Shown in pieces: positions 283 through 59,102 of a stretch of 64,000 nucleotides of DNA. This stretch comes from Nannocystis pusilla. GTDB lineage: Bacteria > Myxococcota_A > Polyangia > Nannocystales > Nannocystaceae. How positions within the stretch are numbered: position 1 is the first letter of the stretch; each line of letters opens with the position of its first letter. A model generated the notes under the pieces. It saw only the letters and a program-made list of their open reading frames with translations. It did no database searches and was not told where the DNA came from. The translations under genes were made by a program, and so were the position numbers. The stretch lies in the NCBI RefSeq assembly GCF_049060185.1, contig NZ_JBMEQO010000002.1; one strand, given 5' to 3'.

Positions 283-909
283 TCAGTACAGCCGCAGCAC
301 CGCCACGCACGCGTCCCACAGCACGTGGCACACCAGCACCACGAACAGGCTGCGGGTCTTGAGGCCCAGCCAGGCCCAGAAGAACCCCGCGCCGGCGGCG
401 GCCACCACCAGCGCCGGCACCCCGAGGCTCACGTGCGCCACGGCGAAGGCGGCCGCAGACGAGGCCGCGCCCCACCACGGTCCTGCGCGCGACGCTACCG
501 CGAACGCCACCGCCCCGCGCCACACCACCTCCTCCGCCGCCGCGATCAGCGGCAGCAGCACCGCCGCGCTCCCGGCCGGCAGCAGGTGGACCCAGCTGTA
601 CACCGCCGCCACCTCGGCCCGCGCCTCCGGCGTCACCGCGAACAGCACCTGGCTGCCGAGCCAGCCCGCCGCGACCAGCACCGCCGCCGCCATCACCCCC
701 TGGACCAGCCCGCGCAGGCTCGGGCGCCACAGCTCGAGCCACGGCAGGCGCACCATCATCAGGCACAGCGGCACCAGCACCAGGTTGGCCGCCAGCATCC
801 GCCACCACACGTGCGGCGTCAGCGAGCCGAGCGCCCAGATCAGCGCCACCGCCAGCGGCACCAGCCAGGCCACGTGGATCGCGCCTTTGGAACATGTCTT
901 GAAGAACAT
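283..909 (-). CDS. CPBP-family intramembrane metalloprotease (CAAX protease-like)
   Basis: The protein MFFKTCSKGAIHVAWLVPL... has multiple TM segments, an EExxxR motif (EEVVWRG) and an FxxxH motif (FAVAH), all typical of the Abi/CPBP family. It is in frame with the upstream epimerase ORF, so the start is taken at the Met at 907-909. Confidence 0.6.
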   Translation of the reverse strand: MFFKTCSKGAIHVAWLVPLAVALIWALGSLTPHVWWRMLAANLVLVPLCLMMVRLPWLELWRPSLRGLVQGVMAAAVLVAAGWLGSQVLFAVTPEARAEVAAVYSWVHLLPAGSAAVLLPLIAAAEEVVWRGAVAFAVASRAGPWWGAASSAAAFAVAHVSLGVPALVVAAAGAGFFWAWLGLKTRSLFVVLVCHVLWDACVAVLRLY

Positions 910-1004
910 GTCCTCGTCGCCACGTCGCAGCCGCAGCGACAGCCCCAGCCACGGCTCGACCCCGGCCGACAGCGCCACGATCTTGGCCGCGGTCAGCGGC
1001 TGCG

Positions 1005-3022: not shown

Positions 3023-3090
3023 GCCGCCGCAGGCCGCGCGAGGGCGCGAGGCCTGGCGTGTCCTCGGGAGCGAGCGGCGCGGTGCGCGAT

Positions 3091-3187
3091 GAGACATGTT
3101 CCTTCGGGCATTGGCGAAAAGACATGCTCCATGGAGCATTGTCGATAGAACATGTCGCATGGGATATGTTTTTCAGACATGTGACCG
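3091..3187. repeat. Tandem array of ~7 units of the 14-bp palindrome family (TGTCC-N4-GGACA-like)
   Basis: The units read TGTTCCTTCGGGCA | TTGGCGAAAAGACA | TGCTCCATGGAGCA | TTGTCGATAGAACA | TGTCGCATGGGATA | TGTTTTTCAGACA. The array has lower GC than its flanks and lies just 3' of the hydrolase stop. Confidence 0.7.
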
Positions 3188-7532: not shown

Positions 7533-7926
7533 ATGTCCCAAGAGACAGCCCCCAGGAACCTCACCGCCCGGATCCTCCGGCTCGTCGGCTACCTCACCGA
7601 CCCCAAGAGCGGCCCCGGCAAGTGGTGGATGCGCTTCGAGGGCGCCTCGACCGGCGTCATGACGCGCCTGGCCACGAGTCCGCGCTACCTCAAGTTCGCG
7701 GGCCGCGGGCTGCAGAAGATGTTCCACCTCCACCGCGACGTCGTCGACCTCACCGAGGAGATCCTGCACTTCTGGCGCGTGCCGACCCTCGGCGACTTCA
7801 ACGAGGTGCGGGCGCAGCTGCGGCGGGCCGAGGACCGGCTCGAGATCACCACCACCCAGCTCGAGCTCGCGCTCCAGCTGCTGGAGAAGCTGCAGGCCGA
7901 GCTGGCCCGCTCGGTCCGGGGGCCGC
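7533..7926 (+). CDS. Small PHA synthase subunit (PhaE / class IV PhaR-type)
   Basis: A ~130-aa ORF lies directly upstream of phaC. The segment VPTLGDFNEVRAQLRRAEDRLEITTTQLE resembles the PhaE/PhaR partner-subunit motif (PTRxD...A.L...E..VD...QLE). The exact end is unresolved. Confidence 0.55.
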
Positions 7927-9072
7927 GTGACGACGCCGTTTTCGCGGGTCAAGGGCGCCGCGCGCAAGCTCGCCGACATGGCCGAAGGGACAGCCACGAT
8001 CGGCGCCGCCTGGCAGCGGGCGCTGCGCGACCGCGCGATCAGCCCGACCCGCTACCTGGCGCCGCTGGTCAAGCGCGCGACCGGGCTCGGCGATCCGCCG
8101 GTCAACTCGACGCCGAAGCGGGTCGTGTACGAGCGCGGCGGCATGAAGCTGATCCGCTTCGAGCCGGCCGTGCGTCGCTTCCGCACCCCGATCCTGTTCG
8201 TCTACTCGCTGATCAACCGCTACTACATCCTCGACTTCCTGCCGGGTCGCAGCCTGATCGAGTTCATGACCCAGCAGGGCTTCGACGTCTACGCCATCGA
8301 CTGGGGCACGCCCGGCGCGGTCGAGCAGGACATGACCTGGGACGACCTGCTCGGCGGCTTCGTCGAGGCCGCCAAGCGGTGGGTCTTCAAGCTGTCCGGC
8401 GCCGACGACCTGACGATGTACGGCTACTGCATGGGCGGCACGATGGCCCTGGCCGCCGCGGCGCTGCACCCGAGCGGCGTGCGCAACTTCGTCGCCCAGG
8501 CCACCCCGGTCGACTTCAAGCACGGCGGCATCTTCACCACCTGGACCGACCCCGAGTTCTTCGACGTCGACAGCATGGTCGACGCCTACGGCAACGTCCC
8601 GATCGACCTGATGGAGTCGGGTTTCTCGATGATGGCCCCGGTGCAGCGGATCTCGAAGTGGTTCGAGGTGTTCCGCCGCCTCGACGACCGCGACTTCGTC
8701 ACCAACTTCCTCGCGATGGAGCACTGGGCCGCCGACAACGTGCCGTTCCCCGGCGAGGTGTACCGGCAGTACATCCGCGACTGCTACCAGGAGAACAACT
8801 TCTTCGAGGGCCGCATGATCGTCGGCGGCCGGCGCGTCGACCTGCGCCAGATTCACGGCCCGCTGCTCGTCCTCGTCGCCGACAACGACACCATCGCCCC
8901 GCCGCCCTCGTCGGAGGCGCTGCTCGGCGCGGTGAGCTCGACCGACAAGACCTTGCTGCGGTTCCCGGTCGGGCACATCGGCCTGTCGACCTCGAGCAAG
9001 GGTCCCAAGGTCATCTGGCCGAAGATCGCCGGCTGGCTGGCCGAGCACAGCGAGCCCATGTCGCCCGGGTGA
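7927..9072 (+). CDS. phaC: Poly(3-hydroxyalkanoate) synthase catalytic subunit PhaC (class III/IV, ~380 aa)
   Basis: It starts at GTG. The lipase-box variant GYCMGG is present, and the class III PhaC core (FDVYAIDWG ... MEHWAADNVPFPGE ... GHIGL) is conserved. It is a single intact frame. Confidence 0.9.
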   Translation: MTTPFSRVKGAARKLADMAEGTATIGAAWQRALRDRAISPTRYLAPLVKRATGLGDPPVNSTPKRVVYERGGMKLIRFEPAVRRFRTPILFVYSLINRYYILDFLPGRSLIEFMTQQGFDVYAIDWGTPGAVEQDMTWDDLLGGFVEAAKRWVFKLSGADDLTMYGYCMGGTMALAAAALHPSGVRNFVAQATPVDFKHGGIFTTWTDPEFFDVDSMVDAYGNVPIDLMESGFSMMAPVQRISKWFEVFRRLDDRDFVTNFLAMEHWAADNVPFPGEVYRQYIRDCYQENNFFEGRMIVGGRRVDLRQIHGPLLVLVADNDTIAPPPSSEALLGAVSSTDKTLLRFPVGHIGLSTSSKGPKVIWPKIAGWLAEHSEPMSPG

Positions 9073-9093
9073 GGGCCCGGGCGGGTCTTCGCG

Positions 9094-10614
9094 TCACTGT
9101 CCGAGCCACGTCGAGATCTGGGCGGCCGCCGTCGGGTGCCAGCCCAGCTTGAGGTGGTTGATGTCCTTCAGGACAGCCGAGTCGGTGAGCGTCCCGATCC
9201 CGTCGGTCGCCGCGCAGCTGTCGACGAACACCACGCCGTCGCTCGGCCCGGCGATCTCGTTGGGGATCCCCGGGATCAGCACGCTGTTGTCATTGAGGTT
9301 CAGGTCGCCGCACAGCAGGTGGGTCGAGATCGAGGCCGGGATGCCGGCGTCGATCATGTCGGCGATCACCGAGCCCTGCTGGATCGCGTAGTCGATGCCC
9401 TTGCCGCGGGCGTACACGCCCTTGTACTGGCCCTCGCCGTAGTAGGTCGACTCGCTGTCGCCGACGATCCACTGCATCAGCCCGTTGTTGGCCGTGCCGG
9501 TCAGCGGATACACGTCGTCCCACGCCGCGAGCATCTGCAGCTGCCCGCGGTAGTTGTCGCCGGCGGCCGACTTGTAGATCGCGTACTCCGAGCGGTCCTC
9601 CCACAGGCCGAAGATCAGCAGCTCGTCGTGCGGCCCGGGCGCGTGGATCTTGCCGCCGAAGTCGGCGTAGACGCCGGCGTTGTGGGCCGTGCCGTAGCGG
9701 AAGATGTAGTCGAAGCCGAGGTTCGGCCCGCCGATCAGGATCAGCTTGCCGATGTCGTTGCGGTACTCGAGGTGACCGCCGGTGAGGCCCGACGCGTACA
9801 TGCGCGACGACATCACGCCCTTGCTCCACCCGATCACGTCGACCTTGTCGACCCCGGTGCGCTCGCGGATGATGTCGATGGCCCACGCGATCTGCAGGGC
9901 CCAGAACACGTTGTCGCCCTGGCTGTGCGCGTGCGACACCGCGAACACGCGGTGGCCCGCGGCCGCCAGCTCCTGCATCAGGCCGATGTCGGGACAGGTC
10001 GACTGACCGCAGCCGAAGTCGCCGCTCTCGCCGGGGTTGGCCCACGCGCGGTCGGCCTGGTCGTTGGCGCCGTGCGCCAGCAGCACCGTCGACTTGGCGC
10101 CGTTGTTCCAGCCGGGCGCGTAGTACAGCAAGAAGCGCCCGCTGTGCGGCACCGGGTCGTTGCCGAAGAACTCGAGCCGCTGCCCGGTCTGGTGGGCCCG
10201 CTGATCGAGGTCGAACCGATCCTCCTGAATGAAGAACGGATCGGGGTCGAACCATCGCTCGACGCGGACCCAGCCGTTCAAGATCCCGTCCTCGAACGTG
10301 TCCTCGAGGATGAGCCCGTGCAACCCGTCGCCGCCGGTCTCGGTGGTCGTGCCCGTCGGCGCGGTCGGATCCTCCGTCGTCGTCGACGTGGTCGCCGGCG
10401 GCTCGGTCGTCGTCCCCGTAGGCGGCGTGTCGCTGGTTGACGTCGGCCCCGTCGTCGCAGTGTCGGTCGCGTCGCTCGAGGCGGTCGAATCGGTGCCCGG
10501 CGTGGAGTCGGTCACCGCCGCGGTCGTCGCGTCGGTGTCGCCGCCACCTTGCGGCGTGCAGGCGAGGAGGAGGGTGAGGGCGGCCCAGGGACGGCGTGTT
10601 CGCATGTGCAGCAA
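9094..10614 (-). CDS. Secreted lipoprotein, alpha/beta-hydrolase (lipase/esterase-like)
   Basis: An intact 506-aa ORF. The lipobox signal is MRTRRPWAALTLLLAC. A Thr/Ser/Pro-rich linker follows, then a catalytic domain with GWSKG (GxSxG). Confidence 0.65.
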   Translation of the reverse strand: MLHMRTRRPWAALTLLLACTPQGGGDTDATTAAVTDSTPGTDSTASSDATDTATTGPTSTSDTPPTGTTTEPPATTSTTTEDPTAPTGTTTETGGDGLHGLILEDTFEDGILNGWVRVERWFDPDPFFIQEDRFDLDQRAHQTGQRLEFFGNDPVPHSGRFLLYYAPGWNNGAKSTVLLAHGANDQADRAWANPGESGDFGCGQSTCPDIGLMQELAAAGHRVFAVSHAHSQGDNVFWALQIAWAIDIIRERTGVDKVDVIGWSKGVMSSRMYASGLTGGHLEYRNDIGKLILIGGPNLGFDYIFRYGTAHNAGVYADFGGKIHAPGPHDELLIFGLWEDRSEYAIYKSAAGDNYRGQLQMLAAWDDVYPLTGTANNGLMQWIVGDSESTYYGEGQYKGVYARGKGIDYAIQQGSVIADMIDAGIPASISTHLLCGDLNLNDNSVLIPGIPNEIAGPSDGVVFVDSCAATDGIGTLTDSAVLKDINHLKLGWHPTAAAQISTWLGQ

Positions 10615-14367: not shown

Positions 14368-14370
14368 GCA

Positions 14371-14466
14371 GAATATGTCCCTGAGGACAGCCGAGAGCTC
14401 GGTAAATGTCCTCGGGGACATATCACTGTTCGCCCGGCGTCACGAAATCGCCTGTCCTCGAAGACA
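14371..14466. repeat. Three palindrome units (two perfect TGTCC-N4-GGACA) in the convergent intergenic region
   Basis: The units are TGTCCCTGAGGACA at 14376-14389, TGTCCTCGGGGACA at 14407-14420 and TGTCCTCGAAGACA at 14453-14466. The first overlaps the stop codon of the upstream gene. Confidence 0.8.
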
Positions 14467-29426: not shown

Positions 29427-30148
29427 GCACCATCGGCCATGTCGTTTCGACCATGTCCTCCAGGACAGCCCGCCAGCGCGGCCTGTCGCTGATCGAGATC
29501 CTCGTCGCCGTGGCGATGATGACGATGATGACCGCCTCGGTCTACGCCAGCTTCAGCACGACGGCGCAGAGCATGCGTACGGCGGAGAAGACCCAGCAGA
29601 AGTACGCGGTGCTGCGCAACTGCCTGGCGCGCATGGGCACCGAGGTCTCGCTGGCGTACCTGTCGCACAACCGCCCGGCGGGCGACGACAAGCACTACAC
29701 GCTGTTCGAGGGCCGCGACCAGTTCAACTCCGACAGTCTGACGTTCTCGGCGTTCGCCCACATCCGCATGCGCAAGGACGCCAACGAGAGCGACCAATCG
29801 GTCGTCCAGTACTTCCTCGCCAAGGACCCGAACGACGCCAACCGCACCCACCTCTTCAAGCGCGAGACGCGGCGGTTGATGGGGGACGTGCCGGAGAAGA
29901 TGGAAGAGTGGTGGCCGGCCTACGTGTTCTGCGAGGACATCAAGTCATTCGACGTCAAGTACTGGGACGTCAAGCGCATCGAGTGGCGCGACGAGTGGCG
30001 CACGATGAAGCAGGACATGCAGCCCAACCGCCTGCCCGAGCGCGTCAAGATCACCTTCGGTGTGTGGGACGCGGACCTCGGCAAGGAGGTCAAGTACGTG
30101 ACCCAGACCCTCATCCCGATGCAGGAGCGCATCGACTTCTCCCGCTGA
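29423..30148 (+). CDS. gspJ: Minor pseudopilin GspJ
   Basis: The leader ...MSSRTARQRGLSLIEILVAVAMMTMM is prepilin-type. The alternative start at ATG 29453 lies inside a perfect palindrome unit, TGTCCTCCAGGACA. Confidence 0.8.
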   Translation: MSTIGHVVSTMSSRTARQRGLSLIEILVAVAMMTMMTASVYASFSTTAQSMRTAEKTQQKYAVLRNCLARMGTEVSLAYLSHNRPAGDDKHYTLFEGRDQFNSDSLTFSAFAHIRMRKDANESDQSVVQYFLAKDPNDANRTHLFKRETRRLMGDVPEKMEEWWPAYVFCEDIKSFDVKYWDVKRIEWRDEWRTMKQDMQPNRLPERVKITFGVWDADLGKEVKYVTQTLIPMQERIDFSR

Positions 30149-31532: not shown

Positions 31533-31537
31533 TCTCC

Positions 31538-37204: not shown

Positions 37205-39600
37205 ATGAAGGAGATCGAGATTCGGATCGGGCGTGGCACCGCGGCCACGCGTTTCGCCGCCGTCCTGGTCAAGTCGGGCAGCACGGCCACCCGCAGCTTC
37301 GAGCGCGCGCGCAGCGGGCCGGGCGTGCAGATCCACCTCACCGGCGAGCGCGACTACCACGTCGCCCTCGTCGCCGAGCCCTCGGCGGCCGACAAGGCGC
37401 TGCTGCGGTCGTCGGTCGGGCACAAGATCCTGCTCGACTTCCCCGGCCGCCGCGCCGTCCGCCAGCGCCTCGCATGTCTCTCGGGACAGGGCCTTCAAGA
37501 CAGGCCGGAGCCGCAGGCGGCGGCGCTCGACCTGACCGCCGGCATCCACGGCGCGGCCCCGCTGTTCCTTCTGCCGTCCGGCGAGCTGGCGGGTGACGCA
37601 GCAGGACCTGCCCCGAAGGACATGTCGGCGCTGCCGGTGTTCGTCGCCGCGGCGCGCTGGATCTCCGCGCGGCGGACGTCGAGCTTCGAATGCCTGTTCC
37701 CGCCGAGCGCGTTCTTCCCCGACGAGCCGCTGCGGACCGAGCGGCTGACGCCGGCACAGGCGGGGCGCTGCTGCAGCAGGTCGAGGCGGTGCTGACCGCG
37801 GCGGCGCCCGCGGGCCCGCACGGGGCGGTCGACGACGCGGTGCAGCTGCGCTCGGCGGCGCTGACCGTGCTGTCGCACGTGGTCGCCACGGCGCTCAAGG
37901 ACCCCGAGTTCCGCGCCGCCGCCGACGCGGCTGCCGGGCGCATCTTCCGGCTGGTCGACGAGGAGGCCGGGCCCGGCGGGCGCAGCGAGCTGCGGGCGCA
38001 CGCCATCTCGCTGCTGTCGCTGCGCGGCCCGGCGCTGCGACCCGAGCAGCAGGGGCGCGCGCAGTCGCTGCTGCGCTCGCTGTCGCGGCAGGCCCCGCCG
38101 TACGCGGCGCTGAACGGGCCGTGGCGGTTCGCCCTGGCCTCGGCCTCCGAGTTCTTCCCCGGCGAGGTCGAGCTGCTGCAGACCAAGTACGGCTTCACCA
38201 AGATCGCCGCGCCCGAGGTACGCCGAAGCCGCCGAACCAGTGGGGCGAGGGCTACGTGGTGCTGCAGGCGCCGTTCGTCGGCAAGGGCGGGCGCGAGTTC
38301 TTGCTGTTCGCCCGCTCGGCCTCGCCGCGCGACGAGAACTTCGAGATGTCGCAGGAGTTCTTCACCGGCCTGCTCGTCAGCCGCCACGCCAACCTCGGCG
38401 CCTACGACATGCGCGCCTCGGCGATCCAGACCCAGCAGGTCGGCTACAAGCTGATGATGAACTGCCAGTGCGCCGGGCTGACCACGCGCTTCGCCATCGC
38501 CCGCATGTTCCCCGACGCCGACATCTTCTCGAGCTGGGACTCGACCTACTTCCGCACCGGCGAGGGCGACAAGGTGGTGGCCTCGGAGGGCGTCGACTGC
38601 TTCGTGGCGATCCTGCGCGGCCTCGCCGAGGAGGAGGACTTCGCGGCGATCGATCAGCGGATCCGCAAGGCCCAGTGGCACCACCGCCAGAGCCGCACGC
38701 CCGACTTCGTGCAGTTCATCGGCCCGGCCCACCCGCTGGTGGTGGCGCGCTACCAGGACATCAACCGCGACGGCAAAGCCGACTACTACGACGGCTTCCT
38801 CGACTTCCGCCTGGTCGAGATCGCCGAGAGCCTCAAGGACTCGGCGGTGCCGCGCGACCCCGGCGCGTCGCCGTCGCAGATCAGCGGCGAGGCGGCGCGC
38901 GGGCTCGGCTGGGCCGCCGGCAGCCTCAACCGGGTCACGCAGTACTCTGAACTTTGGGACAGCTTGCCGGGCCAGGCCGAGATCCTCTACGCGTTCCGGG
39001 CCGGCGGCTTCTTCAGCGGCGCCGAGCCGCCGCGCGACGTGCCGGCCGGCAAGGGCCCGCGCGGGAGCTCGGCCGCTTGCCCGCGGTGGTCCGCTACGTC
39101 CGCGACCCGGCCGGCGACGCGCTGACCGCCGACGTGCTGTTCCACAGCCACCTCAGTCACAGCGCGCAGGAGCTCAAGCGCCTGCTGGTCGCCGCGGAGG
39201 CGTGGTGGCGGGCGATCGACCTCGGCTACCTCGCCGACGCGCCGCCGCTCGACACGCCGCTCGGCCAGCGCGCCGGACTGCTGCTGCTGCTCGCCGGGCT
39301 GCTCGAGTTCCCGGCCGACCAGAACTTCGTCGACGGCCTGTGGGAGATGGCGCTCGACATGCTGCAGCTGCCGCGGCTGTCTCGCTCGCTGATCCGCCGC
39401 TGCAACAGCGACGAGGACCACAATAACGGCAACTATTACGGGTCGGTGCGAGGCATCCGCGAGCTCGTCGGCACGGCCGAAGCCCCGGCGGGGCGCTCAA
39501 GCAGGCGAACCCGGAGGCCTACGAGGATCTGGCCGCCGCCGACCCGGCGATCGGCCGCGCCCGCCCGCTCGGCGAGGTCGCGCAGGCGGCAGGAGTGTGA
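37205..39600 (+). CDS. Large hypothetical protein (~800 aa). It is frameshifted.
   Basis: Long non-R-rich translations are recovered in consecutive frames (MKEIEIRIGRGTAATRF..., ...KLMMNCQCAGLTTRFAIARMFPDADIFSSWDSTYFRTGEGDK..., ...LLVAAEAWWRAIDLGYLADAPPLD...). No family could be assigned. Confidence 0.45.
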
Positions 39601-39779
39601 ACCGGTCGGTTCGGGCGCGGGCAACCCCGCTGCGGCGACGGCTCGGCGGCGTGCACGTGCGCCGCGCTTTCGGGCTCGCGCGTGGCCATGCTCGCGAGCG
39701 GCCGCTCGCGGGCACACGTCGTGTCCGCGCGGGTATCGAACCTGCGCTTCAGGACATGTCCTGAGGCGCAGGCCGCGGC

Positions 39780-40802
39780 TCACTCCGAGCTGCTGTTCGC
39801 AGAGACCTGCTCTTCGGGCAATGTCCCGGCGGCCAGGTGCTCGAGCCAGGCGGCGAAGCGCGGGCCGACGAGCCCGTGGCCGAGGTGGTAACGCAGCTCG
39901 GCCTCGACCGCGCCGCGCCACGCCTCGACCTCGCCCGAGCCGGCCAGCAGCTCGCCGACCGTGACGTCGCCGAGGCCGGCGACCGCCTCGGTGAGCACCG
40001 CCTCGACCTCGGCTGGCAGGCGGTCCCAGGCGGCCACTGCGACCAGCGCAGCCTGGACGTCGGCCGCGACCACGGCCGGGTCGAGCTTGACGAGCTCGGC
40101 GTGGACGGCAGACTCCGGCAGATCGAGCAGCGAGGCGAGCACGTCGGCGCGGAAGGCCGCGCCCTCGCCGGCGTGCTTGGGGTCGCTGACGCGATCGACG
40201 ATCATGTCGATCACGCGGCTGACGGCCCCATCGACGAAGCCACGCACGCGATCCTCGACCGAGGCGTCGAGTCCGACCACGGAGGCCATGCCCTTGGCGA
40301 CGCCGAACAGCTTCGAGGTGACGCCGGCGCCCGGGATCTTGCTGGTGTCCGGCAAGATCGAGCCGACCTTCTTGGCGAAGTCGAGCAGGGTGGTGTGGAG
40401 GATCGTGCGCGACAGGTCGCGCACCGTCGCCTGATCGACGACGGCTCGCACGAGCGCGCGGTTCGGCGTGTAGGGCCTGCGGACCACGGTGCGCAGCAGC
40501 GGCAACAGTTCGCCGGGCAGTCGCGCGCGCAACGTGCCTTGCCGCGGCCGGATCCGTGCGAGCGCGTCGCGGAGGCGCTGCTCGAGCCACGCCTTGTGGC
40601 CGGGCGCGGCGGCGACGGCCTGCAGGCCGGTGACGATCAGCGGGGTCAGCCTTACTGGATCGATGAAGCGGCGGGCCGGCGCGGCGAGGACCTCGTCGAC
40701 CAGCAGCGCTGCCAGCGCGGCGAGGTAGCGCGGCTCGTCGCGCAGTCGCGCGAGGAGGGCAGGGACGTGGGGCACGCCGGCCCTATACCAAGCTTCTCGC
40801 AC
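39780..40802 (-). CDS. Hypothetical protein (340 aa)
   Basis: An intact ORF with balanced, helical-looking composition. The GGACATGTCC palindrome at 39752-39761 lies immediately 3' of it. Confidence 0.5.
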   Translation of the reverse strand: MREAWYRAGVPHVPALLARLRDEPRYLAALAALLVDEVLAAPARRFIDPVRLTPLIVTGLQAVAAAPGHKAWLEQRLRDALARIRPRQGTLRARLPGELLPLLRTVVRRPYTPNRALVRAVVDQATVRDLSRTILHTTLLDFAKKVGSILPDTSKIPGAGVTSKLFGVAKGMASVVGLDASVEDRVRGFVDGAVSRVIDMIVDRVSDPKHAGEGAAFRADVLASLLDLPESAVHAELVKLDPAVVAADVQAALVAVAAWDRLPAEVEAVLTEAVAGLGDVTVGELLAGSGEVEAWRGAVEAELRYHLGHGLVGPRFAAWLEHLAAGTLPEEQVSANSSSE

Positions 40803-40884
40803 GGGGATACGCTGGTCCTCACGACGCGCTGCGCCGAGCTCTCGCCCGAGACCCGGCCCTCACCACGCGCGTTGTCCCGCCGCC

Positions 40885-41723
40885 ATGCACAGTCGCAACG
40901 TCGAGATCAAGAGCCCCTGCCACGAGTCGTGGGACGCCATGCACGGCGATGCGGAGCGCCGCTTTTGCGATGTCTGCGCCAAACACGTGCACAACCTCTC
41001 GGCGATGACGCGACAGGCGGCCACCGATCTCCTGCAGGCGCACAAGGGCGAGCACCTGTGCGTCCGCTACTCGAACCAGGAAGACGGCCAGATCGCGTTC
41101 CGCGACACCGTCCCACTGTCTCGCCTCCGCCCGGTGCGGACCGCCTTCGCGGCGATGCTTTGGCCGCCTGCGCCCCGCACGGCGACGGGCCGCCGATCCA
41201 GGACATCGGCGACATCGCCATCGAGGCGATGGCCCGCGACGCCAAGCCCTCGCCCGAGGGCGGTTGCGAGGTCCAGACGGGGCCCTTCACGACCATGCAC
41301 TTCCCCGCGGGCCACGAGGTCTGCAAGAACGTGGTCGACCTCGGGGCCCAGATCCGTCCGCCCCAGCCGCCGCCGATCCCGACGGTGCCCGAGGTGACGG
41401 TGCCGACGATGGGTGCCGCGCCGATCGCCGCCGACCCGCCGCCGCCGACCGAGGAGCTGATGGGCAAGGTGGCGCCGGTCGAGCACGCGAAGATGGGCGA
41501 GGCGATGCCGGAGGTGAAGGAGCCGTGCGATCCGCAGCCCGGCTTCGCCCCGCCGCCGCCGCAGATGGGCCAGGCGCCGGTGAAGGTGGTCGAGCCGCCC
41601 AAATCGGAGCCGCTGATGGGCGACATCGCCGTCGTCGAGCCGCCGCCGCCGCCCGAGCCGGTGCGGATGGGCCGGATGGCCCCGGCCAAGACCGGCACGG
41701 CGAAGGTCGCAGGCGACCTCTGA
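40885..41723 (+). CDS. Hypothetical protein with an N-terminal Cys/His zinc-finger-like domain and a Pro-rich C-terminal half. It has one frame switch.
   Basis: The N-terminus reads IKSPCHESWDAMHGDAERRFCDVCAKHVHNLS. The C-terminal half has proline-rich PPPP repeats. Confidence 0.45.
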
Positions 41724-41920
41724 GCGCGAGCTCGGGTCGAACTGCTGAGCGCCGGAAGTTGCCATCGAGCGAGACGCCCTCGATCCACGTGAACGCCTGA
41801 GCGGCGTCGGTAGGCGGCTCGTCGTCAAAGCCTTCGTCCTTGTGGGCGGCCGTCTTCGAGGACGAGGGGCGCCGGTCTCGCTCGATGGGAGAGGCGTCGC
41901 CGCGGCGTCGGGCATGGTCG

Positions 41921-42070
41921 AAGGGACATGTCCTGGCGGTCATGCCTGACGCGTCCTGCGAGCGCGGCTGGAGACCCGGCCGAGGAGCTCACGGACATGA
42001 CCGAACAGACATGTCCAAATCGCCATGCTGCTTCGGGCATGTCTTCGAGGACATGCCCGAAGCGACAGGC
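41921..42070. repeat. Two adjacent tandem arrays of palindrome units between convergent genes
   Basis: The first run is GGGACA|TGTCCTGGCGGTCA|TGCCTGACGCGTCC. The second is GGACA|TGACCGAACAGACA|TGTCCAAATCGCCA|TGCTGCTTCGGGCA|TGTCTTCGAGGACA|TGCCCGAAGCGACA. Confidence 0.75.
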
Positions 42071-42072
42071 TC

Positions 42073-45000
42073 TCAGCTGCCGGCGGTGAAGTCCTCGCGG
42101 TTGCTGTCCCACCAGGCTTGCCAGGCGCGCAGGGCCAGCTCGCGGCTGCGGCGGTCGCCCTCGGCCGGGAACGGGATCCGCTGGCCGGTGATCCGCGCCA
42201 GCTCGTCGGCGGCCCAGCGGCGCACGGCCTCGTCGCGGTGGCGCAGGCCGTCGATGACCCACTCGATGCGCGGCTCCTGGCCGTGCTCGGCGTACCAGGC
42301 CCGCCAGCGCTGGGCGCGGTAGCCGTGGTGCTTGGCGGTGATCGAGCACAGGGCCTCGAGTGCGGCCTCGCGGACGTGCTTGTCGCGGACCGCCAGCAGG
42401 TCGATGAGGCGCGGCACTGCGAGGGTGTCGCGCAGCGTGCCGGCGGCCTCGACGGCGAGCAGCTGACGGTCGCGGTCCGAGCTCTCGAGCTCGCCGCGGA
42501 TCTCCGCGGCCACCGCCGCGAAGTCGGGCACGCGGCTGTAGGACTCGAGCACCCGGGTGGCGATCAGCCGCACGTCGGGGTCGGAGTCGAACGCCAGCTC
42601 GCCGAGTGGCCGCAGGCACTTCGGGTCGCGCAGCTCCTGGAACAGGAACGCGGCGTAGAAGCGGATCTGCGGCCGTGCGCTGGCGAACAGGGCGAGCACG
42701 TGCGGGCTGACCGCGTGGCCGAGCTCGACGCAGGCGCGCAGCAGCGGGCCGTGAGCGCTCGGCGGCGGGAAGTTGGTCGCGTTGGCGAGGTCGATGGGCC
42801 CGGGGAAGCGGGCGGCCAGGCGGGCCAGGCCGCGCTCGTCGAGCGCGCGCAGCCGCGACACGCTGGTCCACTCGGCCGGGTTCTGCAAAAAGTCCTCGAT
42901 CACCGCGTCGATCTCGCGGTCGTCGAGCGCCGCGCCAGAGGCGACCTCGGCGGCCGCGGCCGGCTCCTCGGTCGACGGCTCGTCGGCCGCGCGGCGCTCG
43001 TCGACCGGCGGGGCCGCGGCGGACCCGCTCGCCTCGTCGGCGCCGGCTGGCGCGCTCGAGTCGACCTGCGCTTCGGGACCGGTCTTGTGGGACATGTCCT
43101 CGGGAGCATGTTCCGAAGGGACGATCCCTCTCGCGGTCGACTGGGCCGCTGCCTCGTCGGCCTCGGCCTCGCGCACCAGCCGGGGCATGGTCAGGGCGCT
43201 GGACGAGGAGTCGGGGCGCGGGTCGTGCTTGCCGCGGCGCCGGCCGCTGCGCGGGCCGATCAGAGTGGTCGGCATCGACAGCGTGGGGCCGCCCTCGAGC
43301 TCGTCGGGGTCGCTGCGACGGGCCATCGGGTGCGGCGTGGCGGTGAGGCCGCCCGAGCGCCGCAGCGTCTTCGGGATCACCAGCACCGGCTCGTCCTCGT
43401 CCGGCTCGTTCGCGCGGCGACGGCGGCCCGCGCCGGGCGTGCCGGGCGGGGCGACCAGGTTGGGGATCAGGGTCTCGGGCGGGACCGGGGAGTCGACCCG
43501 CGGCAGGTCGAGGACGGTCTTGGCGTCGGGCGCGGCGCGGGTCTCGACCAGCAGCGGCTCGTGGGTCGGAGGCGGCGAGAGGTCGAGGATGGTCGGGGTG
43601 TCGGAGGCGGCGCGCGGCCACTCGTCGAACTCGTCGCGCGTGGATGTGGATGACCGCGTGGTCTCCTCGAGCACCACCCGCGGCGCGCCCGGCAGCGTCG
43701 CCGCCGGATCGTGGTCGACGCGGGCCGCGGCGGCGGTCGCGGCCGAGCGCAGCGCCGCGGCCACGGGCAGCGGGTCCTCGATGCCCGACGGTTCGGCGGT
43801 GGCGATCCAGCCCGGCATCTCCGGCTGCGGGCTCGCCGGCGGCGCCTCGGGGCTGTCCGATCGCGCATGTCCGAAGGTATTGGGCCGATCGGACAGGTCG
43901 ATCGTCACCGCCGGCAGCGGCGGCTTGGTGAACATCGCGGCGAAGCGGGCCACGAGCGGGCTGTCCTGGCCGTTCTCGGGGCCGAGCGGCACGGGGACCG
44001 GGGCGAGGCCGAGACCGGGGCCGTCGCGGCGCGGCGGCGGGCTGTCGGGCTCGTCGGGGTCGTCGGTGAGGTCCTCGTACTCCGGCTCGTCGGACGGGGG
44101 CGGCGGCTCGTCCGCGAGCGTCTGGGCCCGCACGAGCGCGGAGCTCTCGGCGCGGACCGGCAGCGGCGTCACGGTCGCCGGGTCGTCGCGGCGGATCGGG
44201 TTCTTCAGGGTGATGACGGCGCGTCCGCGGTTGCCGCGGCTGCGCAGCCGGCTGGCGAGGCTGTTGCTGTCCCCGAAGCCAGGTTCACTCGCCGCGCCGC
44301 TCGCGGTCGGCGGCGACTCGGGCTCGTCGGGTTCGGCCGAGCTCTCGGCGGCCGGCGCCTCGGGCTCGCTCTCGGAGCTGTCCGCAGAGACAGGTGGTGT
44401 CGTGGCCGGCGCGTCGGCCTCGTCGATGGTGACGATCGGGGTCGCCGGCCGGATCGACGGCCGCGTGCGGTCGGCCGGGCCGGCCCCGGGCGTGCCGCCG
44501 GGCACCACCCAGCCGAGCAGCCGCAGCAGCGCCTCGAGGCTCTGGCGGGCCGTGTCGCACAGCTCGCGCAGGACGGTCCGCTCGCGCGGATCGAAGGCGA
44601 CGCCGGAGCGGTCGAGGTAGAGCATCAGCACGGTGCGGCCGCCGGCGAGCACGGGCTCGAAGATGCAGGGGATCCCCAGCGGCTGGCCGACGGCGAACGA
44701 CAGGCTCGGCTCGATCAGGAGGTGCAGCGGTCCCTGGCCCGACACTGCGCGATCGAGCAGGCCGCCCTCGGGCAGCGGGATGACGAGGCCCTCGGACATC
44801 CGCAGCGCGCTGCCGGGCGCGGCCAGGACGCGCAGACCCTCGCGCTTGACCCCGAACAGGGCCACGCGGGGCGCGATCAGGCTGGAGGCCCGCACCAAAG
44901 CCTCGGTGATCCGGTCGCGCTCGCGCGCGGTGGCCAGAGTGGCGCGAGCGGCGTCGAGGCGCTGCGCCAGAGTCATGACCATCGGCTGCGGCAGGGCCGG

Positions 45001-47402
45001 CGGCTTGCGCGTCGACGACTCGACCCGATCCTCGTCGGACACGGCCTCGGGGGCGCCCGGCGCGGCCTCCGGAGAGCTGGCCGAAGGGACAGGCGGGCTC
45101 GGCGCGGGCTCGGCGGGGCTGACCGGAGGGACAGGTGTGCCCGGCGCGGGCTCGACGGGGCTGGCCGAAGGGACAGGCGGGCTCGGCGCGGGCTCGGCGA
45201 GGCTGACCGGAGGGACAGGTGTGCCCGGCGCGGTCGTGGAGCGAGCGACGCCGTTGCTGGGGCCGTGCGCGGACGCGGGCTTGTCGGCGGCGGGGGCGGG
45301 GGCGGGGGCGGGCGCCACGCCGACGGGGATGCCGACGAGGGTGCGCCTGTCCCAATTGCCAGACGAGGTGTCCGAATAGATGGGCACCCCGAGGGCCGGA
45401 GTCACCGGTCGCGGGGTGGTCGCCGGCGGCAGGATGATGAGCGGCGTGTCAGGGGCGATGGCCATCGCCGCCAGCGAGGCGTTCTGGTCCTCGAAGCCGC
45501 CCGGGTCGATGAGCGGGGCGTCCGGGGCGACGGGGACGGGCGAGGGCCGCGTCGACGGCCGTTTGGCGGGGGCAGCGGAATCGGGCTCGGGCGCCCGGGA
45601 GTCGTAGGCAGCCGTCTGGCGGCTCGCCGCGGCGGCAGGCGTGGGGGCGGTTTCGGTCCGGCGTCCCGTGGCGGCGTGGCCCGGGGTATCGAGCTGAGGT
45701 GACCTGGTCTCGGAGACAGGTGTTGCCTCCGGCGCAGGCGCGCGGCCGGAGGATGGGGCCGAGGCGTTCGCGGCGGAGCTGTCCGCGGGGACAGGTGCGG
45801 ACGGGGCAGTGACGCTCGGTGCTGCGGCGCGGCTGTCCTCAGGGACAGATGCGGCAGCAGGGGCCGACGCCGGCGCCGGCGTCGCGGTGCGGGTCGCGGC
45901 GGCCCGGTCCGCGGCGAGTTCGTCGGAGGCGCGAGGCGCGTTGGCGCGAGCGTCCGAGTCGGTCGCCGGCGAGCCGGCGAGAGCGGGGACGAACCCGCGG
46001 CGAGCGCGGGACCGTTCGCCGGGCGGGCCCGGTCCGCGTCGATGGCCGCGTCGCGGCTGTCCTTGAGTGCAGGTGCGAGCGACTCGCTCGGCCTGTCCCC
46101 GGGGACATGCGCCGTCGCGGCGGCGTCGTCGGGCGTGCCCGACCGCGGCGAGCCGGCCTCCGACGGCGAGGCGCCGGACGGCGAACCCGTCGCGCGCGCC
46201 GCGGTGTTCGGCCCGGACATCGCCGCCGGGCGCGGGCCGGCCATCTGCCTGTCCGATGGGACAGGTACGTCGGCCTGCAGCGCGTCGGCCAGCGACGGTC
46301 GCGCGCCCGCGGTCGCCTCGTCCATCGTGACAGGGGCGGTCTGCGTGTCTTCTGCGGCGTCGGCCTTCGGGGTGGCGGCAGGCCTGGCCTCGTCCACCTT
46401 CGCGTCGATGGCGGACCTGTCCGCCGGGACAGGCGCGTCCGCATGACCGGCGGCGACCTGGCCGCTCGCGGATTTGTCGGCGCGCGACGAACCGAAGGCA
46501 GGACCTCCGGCCTCGACCTCGACCCCGTGACTGGCGGCGGCCGTGTCGGGGCGACGGGCCGGGGCGCCTGCCCCTGGCTCGCGTCGGGCTGGGCCGCCGG
46601 GCCCTCGCCAGCGCTCGGCGCGTCAGCGTTGCGAGCGTCGACCGGCGTGTTCGCGCCGGACGGCTCCGATCCGGCGTCGGCCTGCGACCTGTCCGCAGGG
46701 ACAGCCGCATCGGCGCCGCGGGCATCGGCCGGCTGCCTGTCCGCGGGGACAGGCGCCCCCTCGCGCGCCTCGGCTGTCGGCCTGTCCGGGACAGCTGCCT
46801 CGGCGCGGGCTTCCGTCGGCTGCCTGTCTGATGAGACAGGTGCGTCGGCCGACCGCCTGTCCGCAGGGACAGCCGCCTCGCTCGGCCGCGGCTCGGCGGC
46901 GCCCGGCACCAGGCTGATCGTGATCGAGGCGGTGCGCAGCGCCTCGAGGTAGTCGAGCAGGATCAGCGCGTAGCGCGGGGCGAGGATCGAGCCGGTGCGC
47001 TCGGCGGCGATCTTGGCCAGGCAGCACTCGGGCGCGACGACCGGGTAGAAGCCGCGGACCATGCGGTAGAGCTGGCCGAGCTTGGCGTCGGGCAGGTCGG
47101 GGTGGACGGCGACGATCAGCCGGCCGTCCTCCTGCGCGAGCGGCATGGCCCAGCCGATGTCGACCAGGTCTCTCGGGACATGTTCCCAGGGACGGGTCGG
47201 CCCGCGCTCGAGCAGCCGCACCGGCGCGCCGGGAGGCCGCAGGCGCTCTGCAGCAGGGCGTCGAGCTGCAGCGGGGTCATCAGCCCGAGCTCGAGGATCG
47301 CGGTGTCGAGGCTGCCGCCGGCCAGCTGCTGCCGCCGGGTCGCGGCCTCGAGATCGGCGCGCGACAGCGGGCCGTTGGCTTCGAGGTGGCGCAGGAGGAG
47401 GC
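42073..47402 (-). CDS. Giant multidomain protein (~1770 aa). Its domains, in order, are: two N-terminal GspE-N/MshEN-like domains, long Pro/Ala/Asp-rich tandem repeats, a GAF-like domain, acidic/Pro-rich linkers, and C-terminal HEAT (PBS-lyase-type) repeats. It has at least one frame switch near 46800-47200.
   Basis: The N-terminus is VSLLLRHLEANGPLSRADLEAATRRQQLAGGSLDTAILELGLMTPLQLDALLQ. It is followed by MRLLERGPTRPWEHVPRDLVDIGWAMPLAQEDGRLIVAVHPDLPDAKLGQLYRMV. The middle has a GAF-like block MVMTLAQRLDAARATLATARERDRITEALV... The C-terminus has HEAT repeats ...DPDVRLIATRVLESY...VRDKHVREAALEAL...DEAVRRWAADELARI. The GTG start overlaps the stop of the upstream RDD gene. Confidence 0.55.
46089..46875. 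repeat. Coding tandem repeat of 33-48 bp units, each beginning with a TGTCC-N4-GGACA palindrome
   Basis: The units are CCTGTCCGCAGGGACAGCCGC..., CCTGTCCGCGGGGACAGGCGCC..., CCTGTCCGGGACAGCTGCC..., CCTGTCTGATGAGACAGGTGCG... and CCTGTCCGCAGGGACAGCCGCC. They encode the protein repeat AVPADR(Q/S)(P/A)(T/A)(E/D)A... Confidence 0.75.
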
Positions 47403-48002: not shown

Positions 48003-48056
48003 GGCCCCGGGCCTCCCGGTCCGTCCCCGCGCGGCGCGGCGGGTCCCCGCCGGCGC

Positions 48057-49709: not shown

Positions 49710-49937
49710 GGCGCGGCAATATAGGCGAGTTCGTCACAATATCGACGGATCAATTGCATGCTCAATTACAAAAAGGCTCTAACAGGCCGTGACCTGCGGC
49801 CCGCGGGCCCGTGCGCACTTTAACTTTATTCGCCCCGTTGCCTCTGCCATACCTCAGGGCCAGATCTGGGCGGCGCCTCCGGCGACGGCGACCCATGAGG
49901 GGTCGGCCGCGACGCATCACCCCGGGCGCTGCAAGAG

Positions 49938-50175
49938 GGAGAGGCACATGGTGGCATTTACGGGAGTCAAGGTGTTCTCGGCGACCAAGGCTTGGGAGCG
50001 CGAGCAGATCAGCGACCGCATCAACGAGTGGCTCGAGGCCAATCCCGGCGTCGAGATCGTCGACAAGGTGGTCACCCAGAGCTCCGACAGCGAGTTCCAC
50101 TGCCTGACCATCACCCTGTTCTACAGCCGCCCGACCAGCCGTGGTGCCCACGCCCAGGCGTCCGTGGCGCCCTGA
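49938..50175 (+). CDS. Small hypothetical protein (~78 aa)
   Basis: An RBS (AGGGAGAGG) precedes the ATG. The composition is protein-like: MVAFTGVKVFSATKAWEREQISDRINEWLEANPGVEIVDKVVTQSSDSEFHCLTITLFY. Confidence 0.45.
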
Positions 50176-50220
50176 CGCCGGTCGCGGGCCGCAGTCCGAT
50201 CGAGCTCTTCACCTCGCGCC

Positions 50221-51487: not shown

Positions 51488-52898
51488 GTGAGCGTCGATC
51501 CCGACCGGTTGCTCGAGTTGTTCCGCCGTCACCTCCCGCTGCGCGAAGGGTCCGTCGAGCTCGCGTTCGCGTCCGGCTACGACGCGCCCGTGTGGCGCAG
51601 CGAGGCGGGCTATCCCCTCATGGCCCTGCGGCTGACGACCTTCGATCCGGTCGACGGCGTCATCCCGCTCGACATCCGCGAGCAGGAGGTCTTCATCGGC
51701 GACGATCGCAAGCACGCCCCCGAGCGCTGGCTGGCGTATGTCGAGGGCCACCTGCAGGCGATGCCGGCGATCCTCGCGCATTTCGGCGAACCCGACGCGA
51801 TGATGCCCTGCGACCTGTTCGTCTACGGGGCAGTGCTCGCCGACGAAGCGCTGCAGCGACCCGACCAGTTCGCCGCGGCGCTCCGCGATCCGGTTCGCCT
51901 CGCGGCCATGGACGAGGCCGCGCGCGAGGCCGAGTGGCGCGATCGCCTGGAGCCGCTCGGCCTCGCCGATCACGCCGCCGAGGTGCAAGCCATGGCTCGC
52001 CCCTCGATCCGCCTGCACCTCTCTCGCAGCGACGAGCTCGACGAGGACGAGGACGAAGACGAAGATGCCGAGGTCGACGAGGACGAGGACGAAGACGAAG
52101 GTGACGGCGACGACGCGGAGGCCACTCATGAGCCCGGCCAGACGCGCCTGGGCGGCGCTCCTGACTTGCCGCCCGACTTGCCGTGGCCGAGGTCGACGGC
52201 GTCGAGCTGACCTTCGTCGCCCAGTTCGATCTCGCCGGGCTGGCGGATCGCGCCGCCGCGCGCGAGCTGCCCACACACGGCCTCCTGAGCTTCTTTACGC
52301 CCCGATCCCGCCCGACGGCGTGCGCGGGCATCCGGTGCGGGTGCTCCACTTCACCGACCTCGACGCGCTCGCGCGCCGCCCGGTGCCTCCGGGGTCGAGC
52401 CGCTGAGCGCCTACGACATCGACCTCGCCGACGAGCGGCTGTACCCGTGCGTCGACAGCTACTTCTTCTACGAGTCATTGCTGCCCGAGGCGCGCATCCT
52501 CGAGGTCCATCGTCAGCGTCAGCAGGGCGAGGGGGCGAGCTGATCCCGTTCAACCCGCTCGAGCGCTTCATCGCCGAGTCCGGCGAGCTCGACGACTACG
52601 AGCGGCCGTACCACCGCCTGTTGGGTCACCCGGCCTCGATCCAGGGCGATCCGTACCTCGACGTCGAGATCGACACCCGCCCCCAGGGCTGGGACGGCTG
52701 GGACGACGGCAGCCCCGAGGCGCTGGCCATCCGCCGACGAGCGCTGCGCTGGCGGCTGCTGCTGCAGATCGACGCCCAGGAGGACGGCGAGCTGCTGCTC
52801 AACCAGGACGGCGGCTTCTTCTACTTCTGGATCCCCGCCGACGCCCTGGCCGTCCACGACTGGTCGCAGGCGCGCGGGGCGCTGCAGTGCCATTGAAG
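51488..52898 (+). CDS. DUF1963 (YwqG-like) domain protein with an acidic Asp/Glu-rich linker. It is frameshifted.
   Basis: The C-terminal domain reads ...TRLGGAPDLPPDLPWP...LTFVAQFDLAGL...LPTHGLLSFF... and ...WRLLLQIDAQEDGELLLNQDGGFFYFWIPADAL. The internal linker is DELDEDEDEDEDAEVDEDEDEDEGDGDD. Confidence 0.65.
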
Positions 52899-52950
52899 AA
52901 CATGTCCTCGAGAGCATGCCCTCGAGGACATGTTCTTGAGAGCATGCTCG
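52897..52950. repeat. Gap-free array of 4 palindrome units with exact 14-bp periodicity between convergent genes
   Basis: The array reads GAACA|TGTCCTCGAGAGCA|TGCCCTCGAGGACA|TGTTCTTGAGAGCA|TGCTCG. It begins one nt after the stop of the DUF1963 gene. Confidence 0.85.
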
Positions 52951-52951
52951 A

Positions 52952-56465: not shown

Positions 56466-56548
56466 TCATGGCATGTCCTTCACGGCATGTTGTGAAGAAC
56501 ATGGTGACATGGACATGTCTCTACGGGCATGTCCATGCGGGCATGCCG
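56466..56548. repeat. Tandem array of ~6 palindrome units in an intergenic region
   Basis: The array reads TGGCA|TGTCCTTCACGGCA|TGTTGTGAAGAACA|TGGTGACATGGACA|TGTCTCTACGGGCA|TGTCCATGCGGGCA|TGCC. Confidence 0.75.
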
Positions 56549-56583
56549 ATCGATGTGGCTTGTTCGGCGGGGGCGCGCGGGCG

Positions 56584-57986: not shown

Positions 57987-59102
57987 TCACAGGCGACCGA
58001 CGGAGCGGGCCCACGCGACTGTGTGCTCGAGCCCTCGCGCGAGCGGCCAAAGTGGGGCGTACTCGAGCTCGCGCACGGCCCGGCTGTCGTCGCACCACCA
58101 GCCCGGCGCCATGCTGCCGCGGGCCTTGTCGAGGGTCAGCGCGGGGGCCTTGCCGCGCAGGCGGCCGATCGCGTGGTTGATGCCGGCGACGGTCCACACC
58201 GCGGCCTGCGGCATCGGCAGCGCGAGCGCCCGCCGGCCGAGCGCCGCGGCGGCGGCCCGGCCGAACTCGACGACGGTGCTACGCTGGCCGTCGGTCAAGT
58301 AGTAGATGCCGGCGCCGGCGGGTGAGAGATGTCCTCGGGGACATGGTCGAAGGGGCTGCCTTGATCGGCGAGCACGTGCTCGCCGTCGCGGGGATCGGGC
58401 AACCGCGAGCGCCGGCGCGGGCGATGCCCTCGACGAGATCGAGGGCGTGGATGAAGGACATCCACGCGGGGCGCAGGCCGGGCTGGGCGATCACCCCGAA
58501 CTTGGCGGAGCGGATCATCTGCAACATGTCGAGGTCGCGCGGGCCGTAGACCGCCGGCGGACGCACGATCACCGCCTCGACGTCGCCGGTGCGCGCGGCC
58601 GCGAAGACCAGCCGCTCGCCGTCGAGCTTGCTGTCGCCGTAGAGCGTGTAGCCGACGCGCGGGGCGTGGTGCTCACGCCGCGCGACCTCCGGGTGCGACG
58701 GGCCGGCGGCCATCAACGACGACACGTAGACGAGCCGCCGCGGCCGTCGCGGGCCTGGCGGATCGCCGCGAGCACGTTGGCGACGCCGGCCGCGTTGGCC
58801 CGCGCGAACTCGTCGCGGGTGAACGCGGCGGTCAGGCCGGCCACGTGATAGACGGTGTCGACGCCGTCGAACGCGGCCGCCATCGCGTCGACGTCGGACA
58901 GCGACGCGCGCACGAGCTCGGGCTGCGCGTCGGTCCGCGCGAGCGCGTCGGCGAGGTTGTCGAGGTTGGCGCTGGCGCGGACCATCGCCCTCACGTCGTC
59001 GCCGCCCGCGAGCAGACGATCGACGAGGTGACTGCCGATGAAGCCGTTCGCGCCGGTGACGAGGACCTTCGTGCGCACGAAGCGGGGATTACCCACCGCC
59101 AT
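57987..59102 (-). CDS. NAD-dependent epimerase/dehydratase. It is frameshifted and carries a palindrome-unit insert-like segment.
   Basis: The N-terminus KVLVTGANGFIGSHLVDRLL has the GxxGxxG motif. YGDSK (YxxxK) is present. The C-terminus is in a third frame. Confidence 0.75.

Follow-up and report, generated by a model that had tools for sequence, protein, structure and literature searches.

Repeat arrays at the locus

The stretch of DNA considered here (the window) covers 64 kb of the Nannocystis pusilla genome, has a G+C content of about 71%, and carries arrays of a short palindromic repeat, most of them in the gaps between its genes. Myxobacteria possess very large, G+C-rich genomes in which the termination of transcription and 3′-end formation have barely been studied. 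Runs of RRCATGYY units are present at all five positions where the original prediction had placed an array, within a few bases of the boundaries proposed, and they are listed together with further copies in Table 1. The central array, predicted at 41921-42070, consists of two sub-arrays (A3a with three units and A3b with six) that are about 40 nt apart, with the register of A3a offset by 1 relative to that of A3b.

Plain lists of open reading frames (ORFs), and a first gene caller based on G+C at third codon positions, yielded shadow ORFs and changes of frame inside genes. Because ORF lists are unreliable in this DNA, the genes flanking each array were called with a frameshift-tolerant six-frame coding HMM. 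Stop codons were found on both sides of A2, of the A3 pair and of A4, a convergent arrangement being one of the two placements that had been proposed for these three, and A5 is flanked by two minus-strand genes, as had also been proposed. A1 had been described as lying either between convergent genes or 3′ of a stop codon, and it is the latter description that holds. The plus-strand gene before A1 stops at 3022 as judged by codon-position G+C, or at 3092 in the frame that the earlier reader probably used; convergence is not demonstrable for this array, since it is directly followed by about 1 kb (3190-4190) with approximately 80% G+C at all codon positions, where none of the six frames shows a coding signal.

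Further copies were located with a weight-matrix score over three units, the threshold being the maximum of 20 Markov-chain nulls. The score exceeds all 20 nulls at 13 places in the window, and every named array passes except the degenerate one at 14369-14466. One of the 13, at 55084-55125, is a coding false positive within the conserved DMVILPY motif of phosphoglucose isomerase (PGI) and was rejected as an array.

Table 1. Arrays and single copies of the repeat in the window, with gene context and predicted RNA folds (plus strand / minus strand)
Feature	Coordinates	Strand	Composition	Gene context	Fold (kcal/mol)
Two adjoining units	888..915		GAACATGTCT, GAACATGTCC; weight-matrix site 874-929	near boundary of two minus-strand ORFs	
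A1	3090..3187		6-7 units, several CATT/TATG variants	3′ of plus-strand alpha/beta-hydrolase gene	-40.3 / -31.1
Two single elements	5010-5023, 5060-5073			first overlaps TGA of plus-strand ORF ending 5018	
A2	14369..14466		degenerate; three TGTCC-N4-GGACA hairpins at 14376, 14407 and 14453	convergent: TGA 14365-67 (+) / TCA 14491-93 (-)	-61.4 / -56.2 (z -8.5 / -5.0)
Two CATG units and terminal hairpin	29433..29467		hairpin TGTCC-TCCA-GGACAGCC; weight-matrix site 29419-29474	same-strand gap	
Weaker weight-matrix sites	37468-37509; 39801-39842		score above 20 Markov nulls		
Three-unit array	39736..39777		near-perfect 32-bp palindrome centred on GGACATGTCC	convergent gap; ends 2 nt from minus-strand gene stop (39780-82)	-31.1 / -26.9
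A3a	41908..41949		three units GGGCATGGTC, GGACATGTCC, GGTCATGCCT	convergent gap shared with A3b (TGA 41721-23 / TCA 42073-75); begins 185 nt past TGA 41721-41723 of plus-strand gene	20-bp stem on plus strand, -36.3 (z -4.2)
A3b	41991..42074		six 14-bp units; core hairpin CTTCGGGCATGTC-TTCGAG-GACATGCCCGAAG	last unit overlaps stop TCA 42073-42075 of minus-strand HEAT-repeat gene	-47.0 / -50.1 (z -6.5 / -6.1)
Four-unit array	43060..43129	-	reads ...VPSEHAPEDMSHKTGPEAQV...	in frame in disordered linker of HEAT-repeat protein	
Nine single elements	45780..46871	-	CTGTCC-N4-GGACAG	within repetitive Ala/Pro/Asp/Arg-rich coding region	
Weak three-unit array	47160..47201		GACCAGGTCT, GGACATGTTC, GGACGGGTCG; above weight-matrix nulls		
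A4	52896..52951		four units	exactly fills 55-nt convergent gap: TGA 52894-96 (DUF1963 gene, +) / TCA 52952-54 (PGI-MatE ORF, -)	17-18 bp stem, -31.7 / -34.8
A5	56467..56550		six units	between two minus-strand genes; 33 nt downstream of UDP-glucose pyrophosphorylase stop (56584, - strand), ~467 nt upstream of PGI start	
Two-unit hairpin	58323..58350		ATGTCC-TCGG-GGACAT; weight-matrix site 58323-58364	kept in N. pusilla and N. radixulma	

The basic element

The arrays are strictly periodic. Pairs of CATG tetranucleotides in the window number 18, 14, 8 and 5 at distances of 14, 28, 42 and 56 bp, and every other distance up to 70 bp is represented by at most six pairs. The CATG palindrome had been taken as the repeating unit, an assignment that has to be revised. 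When the search for dyads is centred on the spacer rather than on CATG, the motif TGTCYNNNNRGACA (TGTCY-N4-RGACA) emerges, with 27 exact copies in the 64 kb as against 0.12 +/- 0.36 expected from 100 dinucleotide shuffles, and most of these copies in the window are single. The basic element is thus a 14-bp hairpin, TGTCC-N4-GGACA, in which two 5-bp arms enclose a 4-nt spacer (a 5+4+5 dyad). Altogether 141 elements were counted in 525 kb of Nannocystis-like DNA; the extended and symmetrised consensus of the element is RCMTGTCC-YNNR-GGACAKGY, with a conserved core of 14 bp that becomes 20 bp when the weakly conserved flanks are included.

CATG is the junction between head-to-tail copies (GGACA:TGTCC, the colon marking the junction), and GGACATGTCC arises where an element's right arm meets the left arm of its neighbour. 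The 14-bp period follows from this arrangement, as the element is 14 bp long and the junction of tandem copies reads CATG. Single copies usually take the form CCTGTCC-N4-GGACAGG and head-to-tail runs the form CC-TGTCC-N4-(GGACA:TGTCC-N4)n-GGACA-GG, and the flanks of the consensus fit the head-to-tail model. This model predicts that NCTG should stand at array ends where the next CATG would fall, and among 56 metagenomic arrays from the matches listed (see below) 44 of the 112 ends agree, from which the overall structure CC/GC-TGTCC-N4-(GGACATGTCC-N4)n-GGACA-GG/GC is derived. A role for CATG as a restriction or methylation site was rejected, as the tetranucleotide is not avoided in the window (257 observed, 168 expected) and is merely the junction.

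An asymmetric variant, ATGTCC-N4-GGACAGCC, recurs in the window at 5008, 7532, 9160, 14374, 19267 and 29452. The possibility that such copies supply true start codons (M-S-x-R-T-A) was ruled out at three of these positions: a receiver domain begins about 23 residues upstream of the variant at 19267 (site 19268), the variant at 29452 does not share the frame of its ORF, and no gene is opened by the one at 14374 (site 14375). The copy at 7532 coincides with the ATG of an ORF at 7533..9152.

Distribution and turnover among relatives

A flanking UDP-glucose pyrophosphorylase gene assigns the window to Nannocystis. The window is 95.8% identical at the DNA level to N. pusilla Na p29 (L001) over 17 kb and 85-93% identical to N. 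radixulma (L010). Extrapolation from the window would give thousands of elements and about 1,000 arrays per genome; the complete N. pusilla Na p29 contig (NZ_JAPNKE010000002.1) measures 11.9 Mb. Among the 80 loci scanned the element is confined to Nannocystis-like sequences, being present in N. pusilla, N. radixulma and a Nannocystis-like metagenome contig (L080); the 76 loci of other taxa, including other Nannocystaceae, Plesiocystis and Enhygromyxa, yielded none, bar one chance hit. A metagenome search with a pattern of three GRCATGYC units at 14-bp spacing matched at least 120 loci. At least 59 of these have a G+C content of 68% or more (mostly 70-77%), and most carry arrays like those of the window; the remaining matches listed are unrelated low-G+C minisatellites. 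Comparison of the metagenome contigs with named loci by tblastn gave no informative taxonomic placement; in the one contig checked individually (L163) the nearest named relative is Nannocystis sp., at 56-64% protein identity. Viral contigs, searched for four CATG at 14-bp spacing, contained only ordinary perfect minisatellites or chance matches.

Arrays are retained in orthologous gaps, with change in the number of units and in the spacers. A4 consists of five units in N. pusilla as against four in the window. The 10-mer cores of A5 have barely changed there, but about half of the bases in its 4-nt spacers differ, which is far above the overall divergence of approximately 4%; pairings that involve the spacers in the window are not kept in N. 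pusilla. N. radixulma lacks both A4 and A5 and has an array of its own elsewhere, the site of A4 being taken by an unrelated 8-bp hairpin. In L080 (79% protein identity) three units beginning at the stop codon stand in the A3 gap, which is occupied again in a contig with 68% DNA identity (L191). L080 has no counterpart of the array at 39736-39777 in its orthologous gap, and ordinary hairpins occur at other convergent gaps of L080 and of L280, a Nannocystis sp. metagenome-assembled genome (GCA_016714285.1).

Many of the metagenomic runs are near-perfect direct repeats. Contig L181 carries eight identical units of GGGGCATGTCCTGC, and L198 carries four direct repeats of GGGCATGTCC-GTAY that agree in their spacers and in their asymmetric core. 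Runs of this kind point to growth by a slippage-type process.

Placement relative to genes

The original prediction that arrays concentrate at the 3′ ends of genes is borne out within the window and beyond it. By the coding HMM, arrays occupy four of the five convergent gaps of the window and none of its six divergent gaps, and its two same-strand arrays (3090 and 56467) are near the stop of the preceding gene and a long way from the next start. For 49 metagenomic arrays among the matches listed both flanks could be called, giving 33 convergent, 12 same-strand and 4 divergent placements; nine of the 12 same-strand arrays are nearer to the upstream 3′ end. Only 30 of 131 other gaps on the same contigs are convergent, so that arrays are enriched in convergent gaps (Fisher p = 6e-8) and divergent gaps are depleted of them (p = 4e-5). 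The same trend is seen in gaps of these contigs that played no part in contig selection, where two or more half-motifs occur in 14 of 38 convergent, 20 of 79 same-strand and 1 of 62 divergent gaps.

Counted over the 525 kb of Nannocystis-like DNA, noncoding sequence holds 1.53 elements per kb and coding sequence 0.10. The distance from stop codon to array edge has a median of 12 nt and is at most 15 nt in 50 of 81 cases (metagenomic arrays among the matches listed), and the TGA often lies inside a degenerate terminal half-site of the array. The elements are, in short, almost confined to promoter-free DNA just past stop codons, chiefly in short convergent gaps.

Copies inside coding sequence

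The in-frame array at 43060-43129 coincides with a local dip in G+C at third codon positions. It is found at the same place in a 79%-identical homologue (P0001, from L080) and is absent from more distant homologues. The nine copies between 45780 and 46871 all read xxT GTC CCN NNG GAC Axx (V-P-x-D) and use codons that are rare in the genome (CCT/GCT, AGG); relative to N. pusilla one compensatory arm change is seen (TGTCT/AGACA as against TGTCC/GGACA). That these nine are independent insertions was ruled out because they sit within a peptide repeat that has been amplified as a whole, and they look like one element multiplied together with the peptide.

In L280, 14-bp runs of GGGACAGGTC occur within annotated genes. 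At 6048-6089 and 9155-9265 of that contig, tandem runs of this non-palindromic relative (GGGACAGGTC-N4) lie in an annotated Lhr-type helicase gene.

Folding of the arrays

One unit on its own forms five base pairs, and it had been suggested that any stable structure must come from pairing between units. Folding of whole arrays agrees with this, as neighbouring units pair to give predicted stems of 13-20 bp on both strands. The arrays of the window fold with -31 to -61 kcal/mol and z-scores of -3 to -8.5, counting both strands, and the mean best-strand energy of 59 metagenomic arrays among the matches listed is -41.6 kcal/mol.

Intrinsic terminators combine a G+C-rich hairpin with a U-tract directly after it; strong hairpins are present here and U-tracts are not. 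No T-run follows the array stems, a scan of 39000-58900 for a hairpin plus T-run of the consensus terminator type returned nothing, and Rfam at gathering thresholds gave no match in the whole window. The folding energies show no bias towards the sense strand: the transcribed strand folds better in one of the two same-strand arrays of the window, and the sense strand in just four of the 12 same-strand metagenomic arrays among the matches listed. This comparison gives no indication that the sense RNA is under selection and is uninformative or slightly negative.

Among the 141 elements the arm pairs are C-G in 98, T-G in 21, C-A in 20 and T-A in 2, and the stems show no covariation beyond the first flanking pair, which covaries weakly. 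Arm variants are thus mismatches rather than compensatory changes, and look like decay from a sequence consensus. Together with the low count of better-folding sense strands, these mismatches indicate that conservation applies to a sequence on both strands and not merely to the fold of one RNA.

Comparison with known repeats

REPs occur in high copy number downstream of ORFs, in same-strand and convergent gaps, are clustered, and are sometimes intragenic (PMC3733652); members of the GTAG and CGTC superfamilies carry the respective conserved tetranucleotide at one end of the palindrome (Di Nocera et al. 2013, PMC3733652). The Nannocystis element resembles the REPs and BIMEs of Enterobacteria and Pseudomonas in being a short, G+C-rich palindrome with hundreds to thousands of copies, specific to a species or genus, that lies extragenically 3′ of ORFs in convergent and same-strand gaps, forms clusters whose units pair into larger structures, and has some intragenic copies. 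The suggestion that the arrays are REP/BIME-like therefore stands as far as copy number, placement and clustering are concerned, and fails on the tag and the unit length. The core of 14 bp (20 bp with flanks) is shorter than the 20-40 bp of a REP. Neither superfamily tag is present: GTAG or CTAC lies within 8 nt of none of the 27 elements in the window, and CGTC is found near five of them as against 2.9 expected from position-matched sampling, which is no excess.

The organization of the arrays differs as well. BIMEs consist of REPs in alternating orientation joined by linker motifs, whereas the Nannocystis units abut head to tail, share their flanks, are separated only by a variable 4-nt spacer, keep a strict 14-bp period and form minisatellite-like direct runs. 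The unit of a REPIN is an inverted REP doublet, and expanded Nannocystis runs are by contrast direct repeats. In REPIN-RAYT systems the genome contains the gene of the cognate RAYT (a Y1/HUH transposase), which is typically flanked by the repeats. No transposase is present among the 30 window ORFs scanned or among the 25 commonest Pfam families in 92 ORFs flanking arrays, which are ordinary cellular families (PurT/ATP-grasp, PGI, Lon, TrpA and others).

Other known elements share single features with the arrays. Among Neisseria dRS3 repeats (ATTCCC-N8-GGGAAT) and NIMEs, the dRS3 units flank repeat segments of 50-150 bp and serve as integration sites for phages or insertion sequences; they too are short dyads with fixed arms and a variable centre that are intergenic, arrayed and of very high copy number, but their units do not abut each other, and neither the sequence nor the host lineage is related. 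Bidirectional intrinsic terminators between convergent genes provide one self-complementary structure that can be used from both strands. The Nannocystis arrays likewise fill convergent gaps with self-complementary structure immediately after both stop codons, but they are without flanking A/U tracts, are multi-unit and variable in length, and have a stem sequence that is uniform throughout the genome rather than idiosyncratic. Rickettsia palindromic elements (100-150 bp) are mostly intragenic, and Nannocystis palindromes are similarly tolerated in frame within genes (43060-43129 and 45780-46871), although such copies are here the minority. REP/BIME is the closest known kind, as the right analogy and not as a matter of membership. 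Species-specific REP-like families are common, and the literature searched yielded neither a described Nannocystis or myxobacterial repeat of this kind nor a TGTCC/GGACA operator, so that the TGTCC-N4-GGACA hairpin is apparently a REP-like family without prior description.

Function and origin of the arrays

On balance, the arrays are probably clusters of a high-copy, lineage-specific REP-like element that serves as a two-way 3′ hairpin. Transcription entering an array from either gene would allow neighbouring units to pair into G+C-rich stems of 10-20 bp. As an array is self-complementary the same structure forms on both strands, and it should for this reason act in both directions, where it would stop or block read-through and shield the 3′ end from exonucleases. 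Canonical T-tract terminators are absent from the 20 kb scanned. Growth and shrinkage of the runs proceed, as the direct repeats show in outline, through direct tandem duplications like those of a minisatellite; unit number and spacers consequently turn over fast while an array keeps its intergenic site. A trans-acting factor or a copying mechanism would keep the TGTCC/GGACA sequence uniform. The presence of other hairpins in gaps without arrays suggests that a hairpin is needed there. Several observations weigh against a hairpin role: the arrays have no U-tract, the sense strand of same-strand arrays is not favoured in folding, spacer pairings of the window are not kept in N. pusilla, sequence is conserved and not merely structure, which a plain terminator would not need, and placement in promoter-free gaps is equally expected of a neutral element that is tolerated.

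The last of these observations leads to the alternative that deserves most attention, which we regard as possible though not favoured. The arrays may be a selfish or neutral repeat without function, a hairpin with slippage-prone runs that spreads by copying or repair and survives wherever it does no harm, such as promoter-free gaps and disordered linkers. Much of the comparative evidence is what such a repeat would leave behind: variants that resemble mutational decay in an element whose sequence rather than structure is kept, fast change of unit number and spacers between genomes that are 96% identical, near-perfect minisatellite-like runs, in-frame copies within coding sequence, presence or absence that differs between N. 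pusilla and N. radixulma, and no sense-strand bias. A neutral repeat accounts less readily for a convergent gap that stays occupied across relatives at 68% DNA identity, for arrays that often fill the entire gap and start within a few bases of the stop, and for the other hairpins in array-less gaps; nor was a mobilising gene found adjoining the arrays sampled.

It is doubtful that the arrays act at the level of DNA, with TGTCC-N4-GGACA as an operator-like site for a dimeric protein (a nucleoid protein or a partner of topoisomerase or gyrase) and several dimers loaded where convergent transcription piles up positive supercoils. A fixed 5+4+5 dyad kept across species without covariation in its stems, 10-mer cores that are retained while spacers change, the equivalence of both strands and the enrichment at convergent gaps would all suit a protein-binding site, and the BIMEs of Escherichia coli are bound by gyrase and IHF. 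The geometry is less suitable, however, since the 14-bp period sets successive sites on different faces of the helix and dimers would be crowded on the half-sites of adjoining elements, which abut directly; single and decayed copies are moreover numerous, no candidate protein or known motif matches, and the literature searched gave nothing. An equally improbable proposal assigns recognition of the dyad, as DNA or as hairpin, to a dedicated Nannocystaceae protein that keeps the sequence uniform, in which case arrays built in exact 14-bp steps would insulate convergent gene ends or serve there as platforms on which proteins load (topoisomerase or nucleoid proteins, for instance), rather than as passive RNA hairpins. 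The system would then be REP-like but run by machinery of its own and not by a RAYT.

Mobilization as a canonical REP or REPIN by a REP-associated tyrosine transposase (RAYT) is very unlikely, for although the element behaves like a REP in its high copy number, extragenic location, 3′ bias, clustering and occasional intragenic copies (PMC3733652), it differs from one in its tags, core length and direct head-to-tail runs, and in the flanking genes sampled, as set out above.

With a repeat that is easy to recognise and stands at a large share of convergent ends, bidirectional termination independent of a U-tract would become directly testable in this clade. Annotators could use the repeat to mark gene ends should a genome-wide census confirm the bias in placement, and because unit number changes fast the arrays may lend themselves to strain typing in Nannocystis as VNTR markers. 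The debate on how repeats spread and persist may also gain a REP-like family that has neither the GTAG nor the CGTC tag and no RAYT adjoining the arrays sampled.

Other features of the window

Jumps of frame in third-position G+C occur inside apparent single genes at 2770-2800, at about 14175, at 45850-46090 and at 46420-46690. The proteins of the window have no exact match in the protein collection, and the two observations together suggest assembly indel errors or pseudogenes.

On the minus strand at 52952-55999, phosphoglucose isomerase and a MatE efflux transporter read as one ORF of 1015 aa with no stop between them, and this ORF is flanked by A4 and A5. A segment of about 300 bp (56108-56405) from the gap upstream of PGI occurs twice in N. 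radixulma (L010 11517-11816 and 16580-16877), as inverted copies on either side of the PGI-MatE gene.

A type II secretion or type IV pilus-like cluster occupies 21870-33123 on the plus strand (secretin GspD, GspE ATPase, GspF, and GspK-like and PilM-like proteins), preceded by a sigma-54 activator at about 19175-20806. Several genes contain repeats of other kinds. The secretin gene includes a GCG/GGC triplet-rich repeat at 22429-22507, and the Pro/Ala-rich part of a long minus-strand ORF holds a 42/84-bp tandem repeat at 45055-45233 (4.3 copies, 82-93% matches) that encodes PVPPVS...EPAPSPPVPSAS. An acidic (GACGAG)n repeat lies at 52039-52119, near the end of the gene upstream of A4.
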